From positions 5,633 through 69,632 of the forward strand of contig CAYZNI010000002.1 of the NCBI GenBank assembly GCA_964479755.1: a stretch of 64,000 nt of DNA. The letters run 5' to 3'. The notes under the pieces are model-generated. The model made no database searches and was not told the DNA's origin. It worked only from the letters and a program-made list of their open reading frames with translations. Numbering within the stretch: the first letter of the stretch is position 1; each line of letters begins with the position of its first letter. Made by a program: the position numbers and the translations under genes. This document shows, piece by piece, positions 1,541 to 60,285 of the stretch. Source of the stretch: Candidatus Woesearchaeota archaeon (GTDB taxonomy: Archaea; Nanobdellota; Nanobdellia; Pacearchaeales; GW2011-AR1).

Positions 1541-2341
1541 ATGACGAGAGAAATCGAACTATATGAAATTCCAGAAGTCCCGGAAAGAGCAGAAGTCTTA
1601 GATGATTCTCTTTTGCCAAAGTACAACGATTCTTTCGCTGGCTGGAACGAGCGCGCAAAAGCAACACTTGGAAAACTGGCAAGCACTAACGGCGAAATGG
1701 TTGGTTCAAGTCCTCTTATGTTTGTCCGTATGCACAATGCAGGAATTCTTCCAAATGGAAAAAGATTAGCAACAAGACAGGATTTACAAAAAGCAATTGA
1801 CATCTACGCAAAAAAATATAGCGGCGCAAGCTTTACAAAAGGAATTTACACTGATTTTGGCTTGGCATTAAGAACGGCTGGCGATTCTTATGCTCCAAAT
1901 GACAATTTAGCAAAAAAACTTTCCAAGCAATTAGAGCAAAGAGGAATCAAATTAGGCGAAGGAGTTTTAATTCCAATTTCAGCTTTGAAAGATAGCGAAG
2001 ATTCAAATGAAGCTTATGGTCTAACTCTTGATTTAAACGACTCTACAACAAAGGATACAATTAGAGATTTGAGAGATTTCAAATGGGACTTCCAAAGAAA
2101 TAAAGGACTCGCCTGTGCGTGTCGCAGCGACAGGGACTGGTACTCTGTCAACGAGGTCTTGGGCAGGTCTTACGGCGTTGGCAGGGGGGTCGTTGTTCGT
2201 GCCGCAGGCACGCCGCAAAAAATTTTGGAGCAGAAATTAACTGATTATGCCAGACAACTTGCAGAGTCAAGAGAACAATATAACAAAGGATTAATTCAGT
2301 TAAAAGCAAAGATTGATGCAGAACTGCGTTCAGCACAATAA
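1541..2341 (+). CDS. DGR variable (target) protein with the variable repeat at codons ~190-216; no signal peptide. A C-type-lectin/FGE-like fold is possible but cannot be verified from sequence alone.
   Basis: Contains VR 2109-2186, which matches TR 2500-2577 except at 15 positions, all adenines in TR. The VR segment LACACRSDRDWYSVNEVLGRSYGVGRG aligns with TR-encoded VACAYRNDRNWNSNNENLDRSNDNGRM (AAC codons diversified). Confidence 0.8.
   Translation: MTREIELYEIPEVPERAEVLDDSLLPKYNDSFAGWNERAKATLGKLASTNGEMVGSSPLMFVRMHNAGILPNGKRLATRQDLQKAIDIYAKKYSGASFTKGIYTDFGLALRTAGDSYAPNDNLAKKLSKQLEQRGIKLGEGVLIPISALKDSEDSNEAYGLTLDLNDSTTKDTIRDLRDFKWDFQRNKGLACACRSDRDWYSVNEVLGRSYGVGRGVVVRAAGTPQKILEQKLTDYARQLAESREQYNKGLIQLKAKIDAELRSAQ
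2109..2186 (+). repeat. DGR variable repeat (VR)
   Basis: 78 nt aligned to 2500-2577 with 63/78 identity. All 15 mismatches are A in TR versus G/T in VR, and there are 0 non-adenine mismatches. Codons are in the same phase in both copies. Confidence 0.85.
2198..2212 (+). promoter_or_regulatory. GC-rich hairpin (cgtgcc-gca-ggcacg) 12 nt downstream of VR, preceded by a G-run (IMH-like); DGR target-recognition element candidate
   Basis: Perfect 6-bp stem with a 3-nt loop immediately 3' of the VR/IMH-like ggcagggggg. No equivalent hairpin follows the TR. Confidence 0.5.
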
Positions 2342-2426
2342 TTATAAGTTCTAATTTTCTTATAATCTTCCTAGCCACAAAACGGCTGGGCCACACGCTT
2401 TTTTGCTACGGCTTTCTAAGAAAGTC

Positions 2427-2434
2427 ATAAAATA
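2427..2434 (+). promoter_or_regulatory. putative TATA box for the TR-RT transcript
   Basis: The sequence ataaaata lies ~70 nt upstream of the TR, so the predicted TSS (~2455) sits just upstream of the TR. Confidence 0.3.
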
Positions 2435-2499
2435 CAGCTGTGACCTCTCCTAATGGGAACGAAACAGCAGTGATATGAAGGTAAAAGAGCTAGAAGTTG

Positions 2500-2577
2500 T
2501 CGCCTGTGCGTATCGCAACGACAGGAACTGGAACTCTAACAACGAGAACTTGGACAGGTCTAACGACAATGGCAGAA
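2500..2577 (+). repeat. DGR template repeat (TR)
   Basis: Adenine-rich (26 A) copy of the VR. It lies immediately 5' of the RT start codon and inside the over-extended ORF 2475..3158. Confidence 0.85.
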
Positions 2578-3645
2578 TGACTCGGCTGGCTAGGATTATG
2601 ATGGAAAGTCTATACGAGAAGATTTATGATTTTGACAACTTGTTTTTAGCTTACAAAAAAGCGCGCGCTGGAAAAACTCGCCGCGCTTACGTAATAGAAT
2701 TTGAAAAATACTTGGAGAGAAATCTTTTAGATTTACATTTTGAACTGAAAAATAAATTTTATTCACCTCTGCCAATGCAAACTTTTATTTTGCGTGACCC
2801 GAAAACTAGAAAAATTTCCAAATCAGATTTTCGCGACAGAATTGTACATCACGCAATCGTAAACATCTTAGAGCCGATTTTTGAGAAATCTTTTATTCAT
2901 GACTCCTGCGCAAACAGAAAAGGAAAAGGAACTTTGTTTGCTATTACACAATTTGAAAAGTTTATGCGTACAGTGTCAAAAAATAATACCTCTCCTTGTT
3001 TTATCTTCAAGGCAGACATCAAACATTATTTTGAAGAAATCAATCACGAAATACTCTTGCAACTCATAAGAAGAAAAATTACAGATGAAAAAATAATTTG
3101 GCTCATTGAAAAAATCGTTAAGCCGAATTACTCTTGTAGAGAGAGAGAGAGAGAGTAATGTCGCCGCCGAAGGCGGCAGAGGAATGCCTTTAGGCAATTT
3201 AACATCACAGTTTTTCGCTAATGTTTATCTTAACAAGTTAGATAATTATGTAAAACGCAATTTGCGAGCAAAAAATTACATAAGATATGTTGACGATTTT
3301 GTAATTCTGCATAATTCTAGAAAACAGCTTCTTCTGTGGAAATTTAAAGTAGAAAATTTCTTAATTCATGAGTTGAAATTAGAACTTCATAAAGGCAAGT
3401 CTAAAATAATTTCTTTGCATCGAGGAATAGATTTCGTTGGCTTCAGGAACTTTTATTCCCACAAATTATTAAGAAAAAGAAATGTTAGAAAAATTCTAGT
3501 AAAAATTGATAATTATCACAGAAATAAACTAATGAAAGAGGAAATGTTAGAAATTTTTCAAGACTGGAACGCCTACGCAAAATGGGCAAACACTTTCAAG
3601 CTAAGAAAGCAAATTGTGCGAGAGATTTACAAAAGAAAGCAATAA
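2577..3645 (+). CDS. DGR-type reverse transcriptase; reading frame broken at the (AG)9 tract (N-part 2577..3158 in frame 0, C-part continues in the +1 frame to 3645)
   Basis: RT motifs 1-2 (SDFRDRIVHHAIVNILEP, GKGTLFAI, FKADIKHYFEEI) are upstream of the break. Motifs 3-5 (GMPLGNLTSQFFANVYL, YIRYVDDFVIL) are downstream. Removing one AG unit restores a single ~355-aa ORF. Confidence 0.8.
3138..3155 (+). repeat. (AG)9 dinucleotide tract inside the RT gene at the frameshift point
   Basis: The tract agagagagagagagagag is followed by the in-frame taa. (AG)8 would give a continuous RT. Confidence 0.9.
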
Positions 3646-3669: not shown

Positions 3670-4623
3670 ATGAAGCACAACATAAAAATTACTGTTCTTT
3701 TGCTGGGTATGTTTTTTCTCACTCAGTTAATTGGGATTTTTGTTCTTTCGCAATATTCTCCCGTCACTTCTCAAGTGACGATTGACGGCAATTCAACAAA
3801 TGTTACTTCGTTTGGCTTGCCATATGGCATGGACCCTCCGCAGGATGTTCAGCCTAAAGGCACGGCGGACATTGCAATTTCTTTTGCTGTTGTTTTTTTC
3901 ATCGCAGTCGCATTGATGCTGTTTATGATGAAATACAAAGCAGACTTATTGATAAAAATCTGGTTTTTTGTCGTGGTGATTATGGCAATTGGTGTCACTT
4001 TAAACTCCTTCATAAAAAATATTCCATACTCCTCTTTAATCGTCCTCGCTCTGGCTGTTCCTCTTGCGTTTTACAAAATATTCAAAAGAAGCATCTTGGT
4101 TCATAATATAACCGAGCTGATTATCTATCCGGGAATCGCCTCTATCTTTGTCGCACTTGTTTTGTCTTGGAGTAAAAGCCCAATTTTTACAGTCTCAATG
4201 ATTTTAGTCTTAATTTCTTTGTACGACATGTATGCAGTCTGGCACTCAGGATTTATGCAGCGCATGGCTCAATACCAAATAAAAAATTTGAGAATCTTTA
4301 CTGGATTTTTCGTGCCCTATCTTGGCAAAAAAGAAAAAGATAAAATCGCTCAGCTTTCAAAAACCTCAAAGGCAAAGTTGAAAAACAAAAAAGTAAAAGT
4401 CAGCGTTGCAATTTTAGGCGGTGGAGACGTCGTATTTCCGATAATACTTGCAGGCGTCGTGTTCAACGTTCTTGGCTTAATTTCAGCATTGATTATTTCC
4501 CTCGGCGCAACTCTTGCTTTGGCTGGCTTGTTCTGGCTCTCAGAAAAAGGCAAGTTCTATCCAGCAATGCCTTTCATATCAACGGGCTGCTTTATTGCAC
4601 TGGCTGTTGCGTACTTGATTTGA
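3670..4623 (+). CDS. presenilin/signal-peptide-peptidase-like intramembrane aspartyl protease (A22 family; GxGD protease)
   Basis: Multi-pass membrane protein. It has YD in a TM helix (LISLYDMYAVW), then a long basic loop, then LGGGDVVFP (the GxGD motif) and a PAL-like motif (YPAMPF) in that order. Confidence 0.55.
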   Translation: MKHNIKITVLLLGMFFLTQLIGIFVLSQYSPVTSQVTIDGNSTNVTSFGLPYGMDPPQDVQPKGTADIAISFAVVFFIAVALMLFMMKYKADLLIKIWFFVVVIMAIGVTLNSFIKNIPYSSLIVLALAVPLAFYKIFKRSILVHNITELIIYPGIASIFVALVLSWSKSPIFTVSMILVLISLYDMYAVWHSGFMQRMAQYQIKNLRIFTGFFVPYLGKKEKDKIAQLSKTSKAKLKNKKVKVSVAILGGGDVVFPIILAGVVFNVLGLISALIISLGATLALAGLFWLSEKGKFYPAMPFISTGCFIALAVAYLI

Positions 4624-59505: not shown

Positions 59506-60285
59506 ATGCCAAGAAAGAAATCGGAAGAAAAAGTCGAGGAAACTAAATCGGAAGAAAAAGTCGAGGAAACTAAAGCTTCCAAAATAGCAAAGCTCAAGGA
59601 AAAAGCTGAGAAGCTTGCTGGTAAGATCAAAGAAGAAAAAGTCGATCTTGCAAAGAAAGTAAAATCAGACGAAGACGAGTCAAAATACACTCTTGCTCCA
59701 ATTGAGGATTATTTAAAATCATCTATACATCTGGGAACTAGAGCAATAACTCCTGATATGCGACCTTACGTTTACAAGCGCCGTGCGGATTCTCTTGCAG
59801 TTTTCAACACCGCTCTTCTGGATGAAAAAATTAGAGAAGGTGGAGAATATCTTGCGCAATTTTCATCAGAACAGGTCTTAATAGTCTGTAAGCGAGAAGC
59901 TGGACAAAAAGCTGTAGAATTATTTTCAAAAATAACTGGAATTAAGGCCTTCACAAAAAACTATCCTGCTGGAATATTGACAAATCCACAGCTTGAAACA
60001 TTTATGGAAAAGGACTTGATGTTAATTTGTGACCCTTGGACAGACAAGTCAGCATTTGACGACGCAAAAAGAATAAAGATTCCAGTATTGGCAATTTGTG
60101 ATACAAACAATTATACTCAAGGCATTGACAAAATAATCCCTGGCAACAATAAGTCAGCAAAATCTCTCGGATTCATTCTTTATCTTTTAGCTAAAGTTTA
60201 TTCTGAAAAAAGAAAACTCAAATTGGAGATTCCTCCTCTTTCAGAGTGGGTTGACGGCTGGGACAATCTAGTTCCACCGAAATAA
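59506..60285 (+). CDS. rps2: ribosomal protein uS2 with K/E-rich N-terminal extension containing a perfect 27-nt tandem duplication
   Basis: S2 core …LKSSIHLGTRAITPDMRPYVYKRRADSLAVFN… The start MPRKK was chosen at 59506. Confidence 0.8.
   Translation: MPRKKSEEKVEETKSEEKVEETKASKIAKLKEKAEKLAGKIKEEKVDLAKKVKSDEDESKYTLAPIEDYLKSSIHLGTRAITPDMRPYVYKRRADSLAVFNTALLDEKIREGGEYLAQFSSEQVLIVCKREAGQKAVELFSKITGIKAFTKNYPAGILTNPQLETFMEKDLMLICDPWTDKSAFDDAKRIKIPVLAICDTNNYTQGIDKIIPGNNKSAKSLGFILYLLAKVYSEKRKLKLEIPPLSEWVDGWDNLVPPK
59520..59573 (+). repeat. 2 x 27-nt perfect tandem repeat (atcggaagaaaaagtcgaggaaactaa) encoding SEEKVEETK twice
   Basis: The two copies are identical in the sequence. Confidence 0.9.

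Follow-up and report, generated by a model that had tools for sequence, protein, structure and literature searches.

An AG repeat in a tolerant loop of the reverse transcriptase as a probable on/off switch of DGR hypermutation in DPANN archaea

The reverse transcriptase (RT) gene of a DGR cassette was found to be divided into two reading frames by a perfect (AG)9 tract in the window, by which we mean the whole 64-kb stretch of DNA analysed herein, and homologous tracts were found to occupy the same loop of related RTs. Since this widespread and fast-changing repeat holds most of these RT genes out of frame among the matches listed, it probably serves as a contingency-type repeat switch, namely, a heritable on/off gate on the DGR mutator. 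The idea of a slipped-strand switch, which had been raised in a sequence-only reading of the window, was supported by the recurrence of the tract in the same loop, its length polymorphism, the occurrence of both in-frame (ON) and out-of-frame (OFF) alleles, and the observation that the tract is nearly always the sole lesion of the RT.

Results

DGR cassette of the window

As summarized in Table 1, the target gene with the variable repeat (VR), an RT-16 RNA, the template repeat (TR) and the RT are arranged in succession on the + strand. The VR is situated within the 3′ part of the target ORF, and the target protein had no Pfam family at E ≤ 0.01. The comparison of TR and VR revealed 14–16 mismatches at TR adenines (11 A>G and 5 A>T) and no non-A mismatch inside 2500–2576, and the search for further VRs in the window returned 2109–2186 as the sole VR-like match. 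The structured RNA adjacent to the TR is provided by RT-16, which matched the full model (1–158) with 74.9 bits against a gathering score of 50 (E = 9e-10). No ORF separates the target gene from the RT, and a Pfam scan of the neighbouring ORFs gave no match to an Avd-like gene; an accessory protein of the Avd or HRDC type is not known to be universal among DGRs. As for an uninterrupted RT ORF, another hallmark of DGRs, the window deviates in that the frame breaks at (AG)9.

Table 1. Features of the DGR cassette in the window (positions in the window)
Feature	Position	Strand	Remarks
DGR target gene, 266 aa	1541..2341	+	contains VR
Variable repeat (VR)	2109..2186	+	about codons 190–216 of target; ungapped match to TR
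RT-16 RNA motif, Rfam RF03019	2370..2498	+	cmscan 74.9 bits; directly 5′ of TR
Template repeat (TR), AAC-rich	2500..2577	+	abuts RT start codon
RT N-terminal part, motifs 1–3	2577..3158	+	frame 0; TAA 3156–3158 directly 3′ of tract
Inverted repeat ATTACTCT (3127–3134) / AGAGTAAT (3152–3159)	3127..3159	+	stem encloses tract
(AG)9 simple-sequence repeat, frame-setting element	3138..3155	+	perfect; out-of-frame allele, needs +1 or −2 units
RT C-terminal part, motifs 4–7 and thumb	3154..3645	+	frame +1; stop 3643–3645
Hairpin gccgcc-gaa-ggcggc	3163..3177	+	starts 8 nt after tract

Split of the RT by the (AG)9 tract

The tract was located exactly where the sequence-only reading had placed it, and the split of the RT at this site was likewise borne out, frame 0 (ORF 2475..3158) ending with ...SCRERERE and the adjoining TAA, and the rest of the protein continuing in the +1 frame (ORF 3106..3645). 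The likely start is ATG 2577, with alternative starts at 2598 and 2601, and the homologs of the RT start at the position equivalent to ...LYEKI.... The assignment of motifs to the two parts, which had been given as 1–2 and 3–7, required correction: motifs 1–3, up to and including FKADIKHYFEEI at 3006–3041, belong to the N-terminal part, while motif 4 (GMPLGNLTSQ at 3181–3210) and the YVDD (within 3277–3309) lie in the C-terminal part, which holds motifs 4–7. When the two parts were fused in silico, the product matched Pfam RVT_1 at residues 76–291 across the junction (E = 5e-23), and its best PDB match was Bordetella bRT (8ub7, E = 2e-45), to which the C-terminal part could be aligned through residue 343. 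With motifs 1–7 and a motif 4 of the (I/L)GxxxSQ type, the fused RT is assignable to the DGR clade, and the predicted junction peptide of the full-length RT is RERERESNVAAEGGR.

Apart from (AG)9, the 64-kb window contained no dinucleotide tract with ≥6 units, and such a tract arose in none of 100 dinucleotide-preserving shuffles of the window. It is a perfect intragenic repeat with a unit that is not a multiple of 3, and it is longer than chance allows. The direct translation of variants with n = 6–12 revealed that (AG)10 or (AG)7 gives one RT ORF (356 or 354 aa from ATG 2577). The loss of one unit had been expected to give a single RT of ~355 aa; however, (AG)8 proved to be a dead end of 200 codons and was ruled out as a frame repair. 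Besides the tract, the window RT carries no second lesion.

The loop bearing the tract constitutes a 16-aa insertion relative to bRT (8ub7), its length varies by 0–50 aa among homologs, and in an AlphaFold model it showed a pLDDT of ~47–58 and no secondary structure. Flanked by the motif 3 helix and by motif 4, this is a surface loop that tolerates changes of length and is unstructured in the model.

Homologous tracts and their length polymorphism

A DNA pattern search was conducted for a pure tract of at least 6 units combined with a GxPLGNLTSQ-type motif 4, a definition that places other RTs outside the sample. Pure (AG)6–27 tracts were obtained in the same loop just 5′ of RT motif 4 in at least 172 loci, consisting of at least 120 metagenome loci and 52 species-representative genomes, among which the contig of the window itself did not appear. 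The inspection of orthologous RT genes for the tract, which the sequence-only reading had proposed as a check, thus located it at the same loop in at least 143 clusters after dereplication at 95% flank identity. Among the matches listed, the hosts were nearly all Woesearchaeota, Pacearchaeota or Nanoarchaeota, the loci beyond the DPANN archaea being one Patescibacteria contig and one high-GC bacterial contig. The scan of viral contigs (IMG/VR) for the tract-plus-motif-4 pattern gave 0 matches, and hence elements of this pattern are not in IMG/VR. Comparable repeats outside the RT loop amounted to 1 in 970 kb of AG-tract loci among the matches listed.

The repeat number differed in 11 of the 25 multi-member clusters among the matches listed, with the 1.2-kb flanks being 96.7–100% identical, and length differences were encountered even at a flank identity of 99.5–100%. 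Near-identical flanks surround tracts of n = 10, 9 and 11 in one cluster (L037/L107/L172) and of n = 9 and 8 in another (L011/L110), L042 and L146 have n = 12 and 13 with 100% identical RT flanks, and an OFF allele (L019, n = 9) shares its cluster with an ON allele (L093, n = 10). The tract changes faster than its surroundings in these homologous loci. Some of the pairs with identical flanks may have been assembled separately from one sample or from related ones, in which case they would represent polymorphism within a population and not divergence between populations.

A sequencing or assembly error at the dinucleotide repeat, with (AG)10 as the true allele, is very improbable as the origin of the split. 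Although repeats are stutter-prone in PCR-based libraries and some contigs (L037 and L045) end inside the tract, the tracts span 12–54 nt, which is below read length and typical assembly k-mers, random errors would not deplete in-frame lengths as described below, and the out-of-frame pattern extends to G, C and TC tracts. As a general explanation, error is disfavoured by the presence of the pattern in at least about 170 independent assemblies of diverse project and pipeline origin, with either wrong frame represented.

Frame states and integrity of the OFF loci

When one locus per cluster was counted among the matches listed, 18 loci were ON, 46 needed one more unit, and 52 needed one unit less, corresponding to 15% ON and 85% OFF of the tract-bearing dereplicated loci (18 vs 98; binomial test against one third, p = 1.2e-5). 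The depletion of in-frame lengths was seen within every phase class among the matches listed, and the counts in the window's phase class were 2, 18, 16 and 4 for n = 7, 8, 9 and 10, respectively. A neutral switch predicts that one third of the loci are ON, and the observed 15% needs an added assumption, either a cost of the ON state or the hitch-hiking of OFF alleles with selected VRs; expression of OFF alleles via RNA-level slippage would predict the deficit just as well. VR hypervariability in ON populations could also fragment their assemblies and leave ON alleles under-sampled.

The OFF loci were otherwise intact. Among the matches listed, 60 of the 64 complete OFF metagenome loci acquired an ORF of ≥320 aa when one unit was changed, and the repaired OFF RTs kept the YxDD in 78 and the SQ motif in all of 79 cases. 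The conservation of the C-terminal and the N-terminal halves of the OFF RTs was 0.61 and 0.61, the same as in the ON loci, among the matches listed. A TR/VR pair was identified in 61 of 85 OFF loci among the matches listed (median, 16 A-to-N and 0 non-A mismatches), and RT-16 RNA was present in all 20 OFF related loci examined. In two pairs of loci (L042/L146 and L044/L152), both members are OFF, the TRs are identical and the RT flanks are 100% identical, and the VRs differ at TR-adenine positions; the VRs of L007 and L138, both OFF with a shared n = 7, differ as well. To judge from these comparisons, VR diversification is ongoing in the AG-tract loci.

Plain pseudogenisation, in which the DGR is dead and was frameshifted at the tract by chance, had been put forward as an alternative, and it would agree with the split RT and with published cases of sporadic truncated DGR RTs accompanied by intact TR/VR (Schillinger et al., 2012; PMC3521204). 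We consider it very improbable, because no second lesion occurs in the window RT or in the 60 of 64 OFF loci (among the matches listed), the window TR/VR has 0 non-A mismatches beside an intact RT-16 RNA, and ~100 independent lineages (among the matches listed) carry the same kind of lesion at the same site. Decay was ruled out by the retention of the motifs and the equal conservation of the two halves, and recent inactivation is disfavoured as a general explanation by the catalytic motifs, RT-16 RNA and adenine-only TR/VR mismatches that the OFF loci keep. At the family level, these sequence patterns indicate that pseudogenisation is already contradicted.

The same observations bear on programmed recoding, by which the RT would be produced from OFF alleles via RNA polymerase slippage or a ribosomal slip of ±2 (AG) or ±1 (G/C) nt. 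Out-of-frame lengths would then be a selected low-dosage state, and tract length would tune the RT output like a rheostat. We regard this explanation as possible but rather doubtful. It would accommodate the dominance of OFF alleles (85%) and the specific depletion of in-frame lengths among the matches listed, the full purifying selection on the C-terminal half of OFF RTs, and the VR differences within pairs of OFF lineages, L007/L138 at n = 7 among them. By frame arithmetic, furthermore, a −2 slip of tRNA-Glu from GAG 3153–3155 to GAG 3151–3153 would re-pair perfectly and yield the protein encoded by (AG)10, and the stable hairpin located 3–8 nt 3′ of the tract in the window's subfamily exhibits compensatory stem changes between loci. 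On the other hand, no single shift direction is conserved because the two wrong frames are about equally common (46 vs 52, among the matches listed), four repeat chemistries (AG, G, C and TC) occur in the loop, the 0-frame stop lies at no fixed spacing from the tract (0 to 85 nt across loci, among the matches listed), the hairpin is restricted to ~10% of the loci, and in-frame alleles occur in nature. To our knowledge, moreover, efficient RNA polymerase slippage is established for homopolymers and not for dinucleotide repeats. The strict version, in which out-of-frame lengths are functional, the RT arises solely via slippage of RNA polymerase or the ribosome by ±2 nt on (AG)n or (TC)n and by ±1 nt on G or C runs, tract length is a dosage rheostat and in-frame alleles are counter-selected as over-active mutators, appears unlikely; if true, it would amount to a conserved dinucleotide-repeat recoding across DPANN archaea and some bacteria, on top of the DNA-level length polymorphism.

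Other repeat types and flanking structures

Sister RTs were found to carry other repeats in the same loop, namely, G11 (in frame in L173–L175, OFF in L177 and L178), G8 (L176, in frame), C10 (L179, OFF) and (TC)12 (L180, OFF), and in every OFF allele among these a change of one unit restores the frame. With AG, G, C and TC repeats, the homologous loop presents, from the sequences compared, a case of convergence.

The folds of 3120–3200, which contains the inverted repeat enclosing the tract and the downstream hairpin, gave z = −3.8 for RNA and −4.3 for DNA, with none of 200 shuffles being equally stable. The hairpin had already been recognized in the sequence-only reading and is indeed present, although at 3163–3177, one base to the right of the 3162–3176 reported there. 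Equivalents with other stem sequences were found 3–8 nt after the tract in ~10% of the related loci, and in the remaining ~90% the region from the tract to motif 4 lacked a stable fold (median z = +0.4). With a significantly stable fold in ~10% of the loci, the downstream hairpin was rejected as a general component; it is a subfamily feature and not a general part of the device. The flanking inverted repeat was also rejected as a general feature, the real flank pairs being no more complementary than mismatched ones (p = 0.13).

The tract might instead be selected as a nucleic-acid element, such as a polypurine tract, H-DNA or a retrohoming RNA signal, with an incidental effect on the frame. 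It is a pure polypurine/polypyrimidine mirror repeat within a retroelement, and in the window it lies inside an inverted repeat and is followed by a hairpin. This explanation is nevertheless highly unlikely, considering that the G, C and TC runs of sister loci share slippage-proneness but not sequence or strand composition, that the inverted repeat is not general, and that the tract is located ~560 nt 3′ of the TR. Moreover, a nucleic-acid element alone would favour in-frame lengths, and these are avoided instead.

Discussion

In the proposed switch, slipped-strand mispairing during DNA replication would add or remove AG units, and since the unit is 2 nt, such slips would move the catalytic half of the RT (motifs 4–7) in or out of frame. 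The window carries an OFF allele, and the ON state would correspond to (AG)10 or (AG)7. Within a population, the majority of cells would keep the RT off and the target VR fixed, an in-frame minority would produce the RT and use the TR to diversify the VR, and favoured variants could then be locked by a further slip. We infer both this selective logic and the reversibility of the switch within a lineage.

Contingency loci are familiar from bacteria, in which CT/AG repeats occur in outer-membrane protein genes of Helicobacter pylori and poly-G tracts in Campylobacter and Neisseria. The simple-sequence contingency loci of H. pylori have been reviewed (PMC4081817), and the concept has been cited elsewhere (PMC3521204; PMC12633550). 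The AG-tract loci resemble them in having a perfect coding-region repeat with a unit not divisible by 3 in an otherwise intact gene, in the variation of repeat number between near-identical strains, and in the coexistence of ON and OFF alleles. Unlike the bacterial loci, however, the gated gene encodes the RT of a targeted hypermutation system and not a surface or modification function, the hosts belong to the DPANN archaea and to some bacteria, one of which is represented by the Patescibacteria contig, four repeat types share one homologous loop across >100 divergent lineages, and in-frame lengths are under-represented (15%, among the matches listed).

The cassette of the window shares with canonical DGRs, typified by that of Bordetella phage BPP-1 (bRT/Avd/TR/VR; 8ub7), the SQ-containing motif 4, the TR beside the RT, a target gene with the VR in its 3′ part, adenine-only differences, and a structured RNA beside the TR. 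It differs from the BPP-1 system in that the RT ORF is interrupted by a repeat within the 16-aa loop insertion absent from bRT, that no Avd-like gene was seen beside the cassette, and that the RNA element is RT-16. Truncated RTs with TR/VR pairs carrying only A-mutations were described by Schillinger et al. (2012; PMC3521204) and read as very recent inactivation. The AG-tract loci have the same combination of a truncated RT and A-only TR/VR mutations; however, those cases were isolated nonsense, IS-insertion and frameshift events at arbitrary sites (PMC3521204), whereas the lesion in the AG-tract loci is always a change of repeat length at one conserved position, one slip from repair.

Systems dependent on slippage or frameshifting likewise possess a slippery repeat where two overlapping frames join, and require a shift for the full-length product. 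Atkins et al., in a review dated 2016, reportedly treat the programmed frameshifting of mobile elements and the rescue of frameshifted genes when the polymerase slips at long homopolymers. In contrast to such systems, the AG-tract loci have no conserved shift direction, apparently keep no fixed distance to a stop codon or a stimulatory structure, use dinucleotide units, and show length polymorphism at the DNA level. Switchable mutators offer a further parallel: mismatch-repair genes can be phase-variable or repeat-controlled, and phase-variable methyltransferases form phasevarions. Both these and the proposed gate would place a stochastic heritable switch in an enzyme that sets the amount or expression of downstream variation, but the DGR mutator acts on one defined 78-nt target and not genome-wide.

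How DGRs are restrained is of interest, since useful variants would be overwritten if mutagenic retrohoming ran unchecked. A repeat that is prone to slippage and is placed in a tolerant loop of the RT, which would leave most genomes one slip from an active mutator, would be a simple and testable answer, and one applicable to the very numerous DGRs that DPANN archaea and some bacteria harbour. If this is the case, the tract would be a device for second-order evolvability that switches a targeted hypermutator stochastically, and the loci would form by far the largest contingency-locus family in archaea, as far as known. Both the convergence of four repeat types (AG, G, C and TC) on one loop and the scarcity of in-frame lengths are unusual, and a specialist would not anticipate such signatures. 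Full-text searches of the literature yielded no description of a DGR RT bearing a repeat tract, a mention in Paul et al. (2017; Nat Microbiol, PMC5436926) being possible.

With ~85% of the tract-bearing loci being out of frame among the matches listed, most of these elements would be missed or mis-split by gene callers and DGR surveys in which an intact RT ORF is required. The protein database contained well over a thousand N-terminal RT fragments. The search for them returned almost only fragment-length proteins, the full-length parent being absent, and no ON:OFF ratio was drawn from it since it apparently favours query-like length. Among the best 120 fragments, 70 end after a G-run, 18 after an RE-run, and several after a P-run, and the two wrong frames of the poly-G alleles were represented by 28 and 17 recognisable tails.

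The DGR cassette and its split RT

As summarized in the table below, the window, which has a G+C content of 38%, carries a compact DGR. TR/VR differences affect 14-16 adenines of the TR and, inside 2500-2576, nothing else; no further VR was found across the 64 kb. Apart from the lack of an uninterrupted RT ORF, the element showed the DGR features of a DGR-clade RT, a TR/VR pair differing at TR adenines, a VR towards the 3' end of the target ORF and a structured RNA beside the TR. The Pfam scan of neighbouring ORFs brought up no match to an Avd-like accessory protein, which is not universal among DGRs. The fused RT is of the DGR type. It gave a Pfam RVT_1 match spanning the junction, and its closest solved structure was the Bordetella bRT (8ub7, E = 2e-45). 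Homologs at E < 1e-20 numbered more than 7,000, and the best 120 were all intact and, where a source was named, labelled Nanoarchaeota or Pacearchaeota. Since the RT-16 RNA was located 5' of the TR in all 20 related loci tested, it probably serves this DGR clade as its cis RNA.

Table. Coordinates of the DGR features in the window and of motif 4 in sister RT loci with other repeat types
Feature	Locus	Position	Strand	Remark
DGR target ORF	window	1541..2341	+	266 aa
VR	window	2109-2186	+	inside target ORF
RT-16 RNA (Rfam RF03019)	window	2370-2498	+	between target gene and TR; full-length match, 74.9 bits
TR	window	2500-2577	+	AAC-rich
RT gene	window	2577 (start ATG); C-terminal part to 3645	+	
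Motif 3	window	3006-3041		FKADIKHYFEEI
Inverted repeat	window	3127-3134 and 3152-3159		ATTACTCT pairs with AGAGTAAT
(AG)9 tract	window	3138-3155		perfect
Frame 0 stop of RT	window	3156-3158		SCRERERE-TAA
Motif 4	L173	2092		
Motif 4	L176	2197		
Motif 4	L177	3135		
Motif 4	L178	3117		
Motif 4	L179	1590		
Motif 4	L180	1115		

The sequence-only reading had located the split exactly: frame 0 stops right after the (AG)9, and the +1 frame runs on as ...ERERESNVAAEGGRGMPLGNLTSQ... to its end. No other dinucleotide tract in the window reaches 6 units, and 100 dinucleotide-preserving shuffles of the window contained not a single one of that length. Three details of that reading required correction, one of them the hairpin position given below. 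Translation of variants with n = 6-12 units gave a single ORF only at n = 7 and 10 (and 13), with an RT of 354 or 356 aa counted from ATG 2577, so the proposed loss of one AG unit leaves the gene broken; and motif 3, placed by it after the split, lies in the N-terminal part.

Distribution of homologous tracts

The loop that joins the motif 3 helix to motif 4 ranged from 0 to ~50 residues when the best 120 intact homologs were aligned, and runs of (RE)n (21/121), G (14/121) and P (1/121) fell exactly in that loop. A DNA pattern search (AGAGAGAGAGAG, a 6-36 nt gap and a degenerate GxPLGNLTSQ), confined to pure tracts of 6 or more units and to motif 4 variants near GxPLGNLTSQ, retrieved at least 120 loci from the metagenome collection and 52 from the species-representative genomes. 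Every listed match had a pure (AG)n, n = 6 to 27, just 5' of motif 4. The tract is not peculiar to the RT of the window.

The tract-bearing hosts were nearly all Woesearchaeota, Pacearchaeota or Nanoarchaeota MAGs. The (AG)n-split RT is not confined to archaea, since it was also present on a genuine Patescibacteria contig of 867 kb having RNase Y, YbeY and YqeY neighbours (L139, (AG)16 at about 3146, RT-oriented) and on a bacterial contig of 57% G+C (L153, (AG)9 at about 1174). A further contig (L124) is labelled 'bacterium', yet contains archaeal exosome genes. Clustering at 95% flank identity gave 143 clusters among the matches listed, and therefore many independent lineages carry the tract; mutual identity of the RE-class RT proteins went down to 58%. 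Two different AG-tract RT genes (L026 and L049) were found on one 24.6 kb contig (Ga0209542_10005738), and one genome can thus hold more than one repeat-gated DGR.

Convergent repeats and their position in the protein

The G runs of four sister RTs were homopolymer-encoded (G11 in L173-L175, G8 in L176), all in frame. With an N-terminal RT fragment as query, 1,597 proteins of about 185-270 aa were retrieved, and among the best 120 of these the C-terminal end lay just past a G run in 70 and an RE run in 18, several terminated after PPP(P) runs and one after (SL)n. The fragment tails corresponded to both out-of-frame readings of KGMPLGNLTSQFFANVYL. The DNA of four fragments revealed G11 (L177 and L178), C10 (L179) and (TC)12 (L180) in the same loop, all out of frame (OFF), and in each a one-unit change restored an RT of 367-409 aa. 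The common factor of the four repeat types is slippage-proneness, not sequence.

The repeat-encoded segment lies within a 16-residue insertion relative to bRT 8ub7. AlphaFold modelling (mean pLDDT 80) predicted a coil (pLDDT 47-58) at residues ~182-208, flanked by helix 171-181 and by the motif 4 helix (209-229), and in-frame alleles occurred with widely different (RE)n lengths. Such a length-tolerant loop can be a place for a repeat to persist.

Local nucleic-acid structure

The inverted repeat of the window encloses the tract, and 3' of it stands the GC hairpin gccgcc-gaa-ggcggc, which had been correctly recognized but assigned to 3162-3176 instead of 3163-3177. Folds of 3120-3200 were far stabler than shuffles (z = -3.8 for RNA and -4.3 for DNA). 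The inverted repeat, when tested across related loci, was not general. A stable hairpin starting 3-8 nt past the tract was present in ~10% of the loci (L012, L041, L048, L087, L102, L111, L128, L130 and L168) and absent elsewhere; its stems varied (ttggct/agccaa, ttcgccg/cggcgaa, ttgccc/gggcaa, ttgtcc/ggacaa and gccgcc/ggcggc) and encoded unrelated peptides, indicative of nucleic-acid-level selection in this subfamily. Furthermore, L176 (about 2150-2185) and L178 (about 3060-3092) each have a perfect palindrome of 10-11 bp, CCAATTTGCC(C)...(G)GGCAAATTGG, immediately next to the G run. Its translation is the widely conserved peptide NLPxG(Q/K)(I/L)GGG, the conservation of which may reflect a selected nucleic-acid hairpin. 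All these structures could promote slippage or pausing.

Integrity of the OFF loci

A one-unit AG change gave a single ORF of at least 320 aa in 60 of the 64 complete OFF metagenome loci among the matches listed. The repaired RTs retained YxDD (78/79) and the SQ motif (79/79). Similarity to the query was 0.61 for both halves; for the C-terminal one, which is not translated when the RT is OFF, it was no lower than in ON loci. A TR at the RT start together with a VR was found in 61 of the 85 OFF loci with sufficient flank (median length 84 nt; medians of 16 A-to-N and 0 non-A mismatches; totals of 971 vs 39), a pattern indistinguishable from that of in-frame loci, and the RT-16 RNA was retained in all 20 OFF loci tested (67-111 bits). 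These observations contradict pseudogenisation, including the recent inactivation that the sequence-only reading had offered as an alternative. Very recent inactivation was inferred for isolated truncated DGR RTs with A-only TR/VR differences (Schillinger et al., 2012; PMC3521204). Assembly error and a purely nucleic-acid role of the tract were each contradicted by several of the results.

Tract hypermutability and VR turnover

The repeat number differed in 11 of 25 multi-member clusters despite ~1.2 kb of flank being 96.7-100% identical, as in L037/L107/L172 (n = 10/9/11), L011/L110 (9/8), L021/L096 (19/16), L042/L146 (12/13), L044/L152 (10/8), L100/L134 (15/12), L108/L133 (18/16), L087/L102 (6/8) and the pair of L019 (OFF, n = 9) and L093 (ON, n = 10). 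In L042/L146 and L044/L152, all OFF, the TRs and RT flanks were identical (flanks 100%) and the VRs differed at TR-adenine positions; L007/L138, at an equal n = 7, fit the same description. The RT was therefore active within a time of zero flank substitutions. Certain pairs may represent related samples that were assembled separately; if so, tract and VR are polymorphic within a population. Comparable repeats outside the RT loop numbered one in 970 kb of related loci (G8 at position 7135 of L137, RT-oriented). Several contigs ended inside or beside the tract (position 1 of L037 and L045, RT-oriented; within 60 nt in L031, L008 and L001), as expected if reads there vary in length.

Frame states and proposed mechanism

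Frame calls by two independent methods, tblastn frames and open-frame tracing, agreed at every locus. Among the matches listed, 15 metagenome loci were in frame, 34 needed one more unit and 48 one less; the genome-collection loci were divided into 6, 20 and 16, respectively, and the window allele belongs to the class needing one more unit. With one listed locus per 95% cluster, 18 were ON, 46 needed +1 and 52 needed -1, an ON share of 15.5% vs one third expected under neutral length (binomial p = 1.2e-5), which is to be read with the caveat that assembly breaks at active VRs might under-sample in-frame alleles. When the length distributions were split by the residue of n giving an in-frame RT, those of the matches listed showed holes at in-frame n, class by class: the class ON at 6/9/12 had 16, 17, 2 and 8 loci at n = 7, 8, 9 and 10, and the window's class, ON at 7/10/13, had 2, 18, 16 and 4. 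By extrapolation from the 15% ON rate and the runs in 36/121 intact homologs, a repeat would be present in the majority of the clade's RTs.

The best-supported mechanism, judged by sequence comparison, would be a contingency-type switch, which agrees with every comparative result: replication slippage would alter the repeat number, the change would shift motifs 4-7 into or out of frame, and most genomes would be kept OFF, one slip away from ON. The slipped-strand switch of the sequence-only reading is partly supported. The in-frame deficit needs one added assumption, namely that an active mutator is costly or that OFF alleles hitch-hike with selected VRs. That deficit would be directly accounted for by the main rival, expression of OFF alleles via RNA polymerase or ribosome slippage; slips of +/-2 on AG repeats restore perfect pairing, and one of -2 at GAG 3153-3155 would yield the (AG)10 protein. 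This rival is weakened, however, because both wrong frames are used equally, the repeat types are diverse, stop distances vary and the hairpin is rare. The switch and slippage expression are compatible, not exclusive. In its working, the proposed switch would match the intragenic repeat contingency loci of bacteria; in concept it resembles switchable mutators. No link between a DGR RT and a repeat tract was found in the literature searched. As a repeat switch it would act on a targeted hypermutator, being both conserved and convergent among DPANN archaea and certain bacteria.

Neighbouring genes

A PIN-domain toxin ORF (721-1158, - strand; Pfam PIN, E = 3.5e-14) and a small ORF upstream of it (1155-1391) overlap each other; the two (721-1391, - strand) have the appearance of a VapBC-like pair and lie directly 5' of the DGR target gene. 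Toxin-antitoxin-type genes (ParE and PemK) also lie near the RT in L177 and L173. Directly 3' of the RT is a 317-aa polytopic membrane protein (3670-4623, + strand) without a Pfam match, whose ...LYDMYAVW... and ...ILGGGDVVFP... seem to resemble the YD/GxGD motifs of presenilin/signal-peptide-peptidase type intramembrane proteases. At 59518-59574, TRF identified a perfect 27-nt tandem repeat of 2.1 copies, AAATCGGAAGAAAAAGTCGAGGAAACT, which is probably coding since its unit is divisible by 3.
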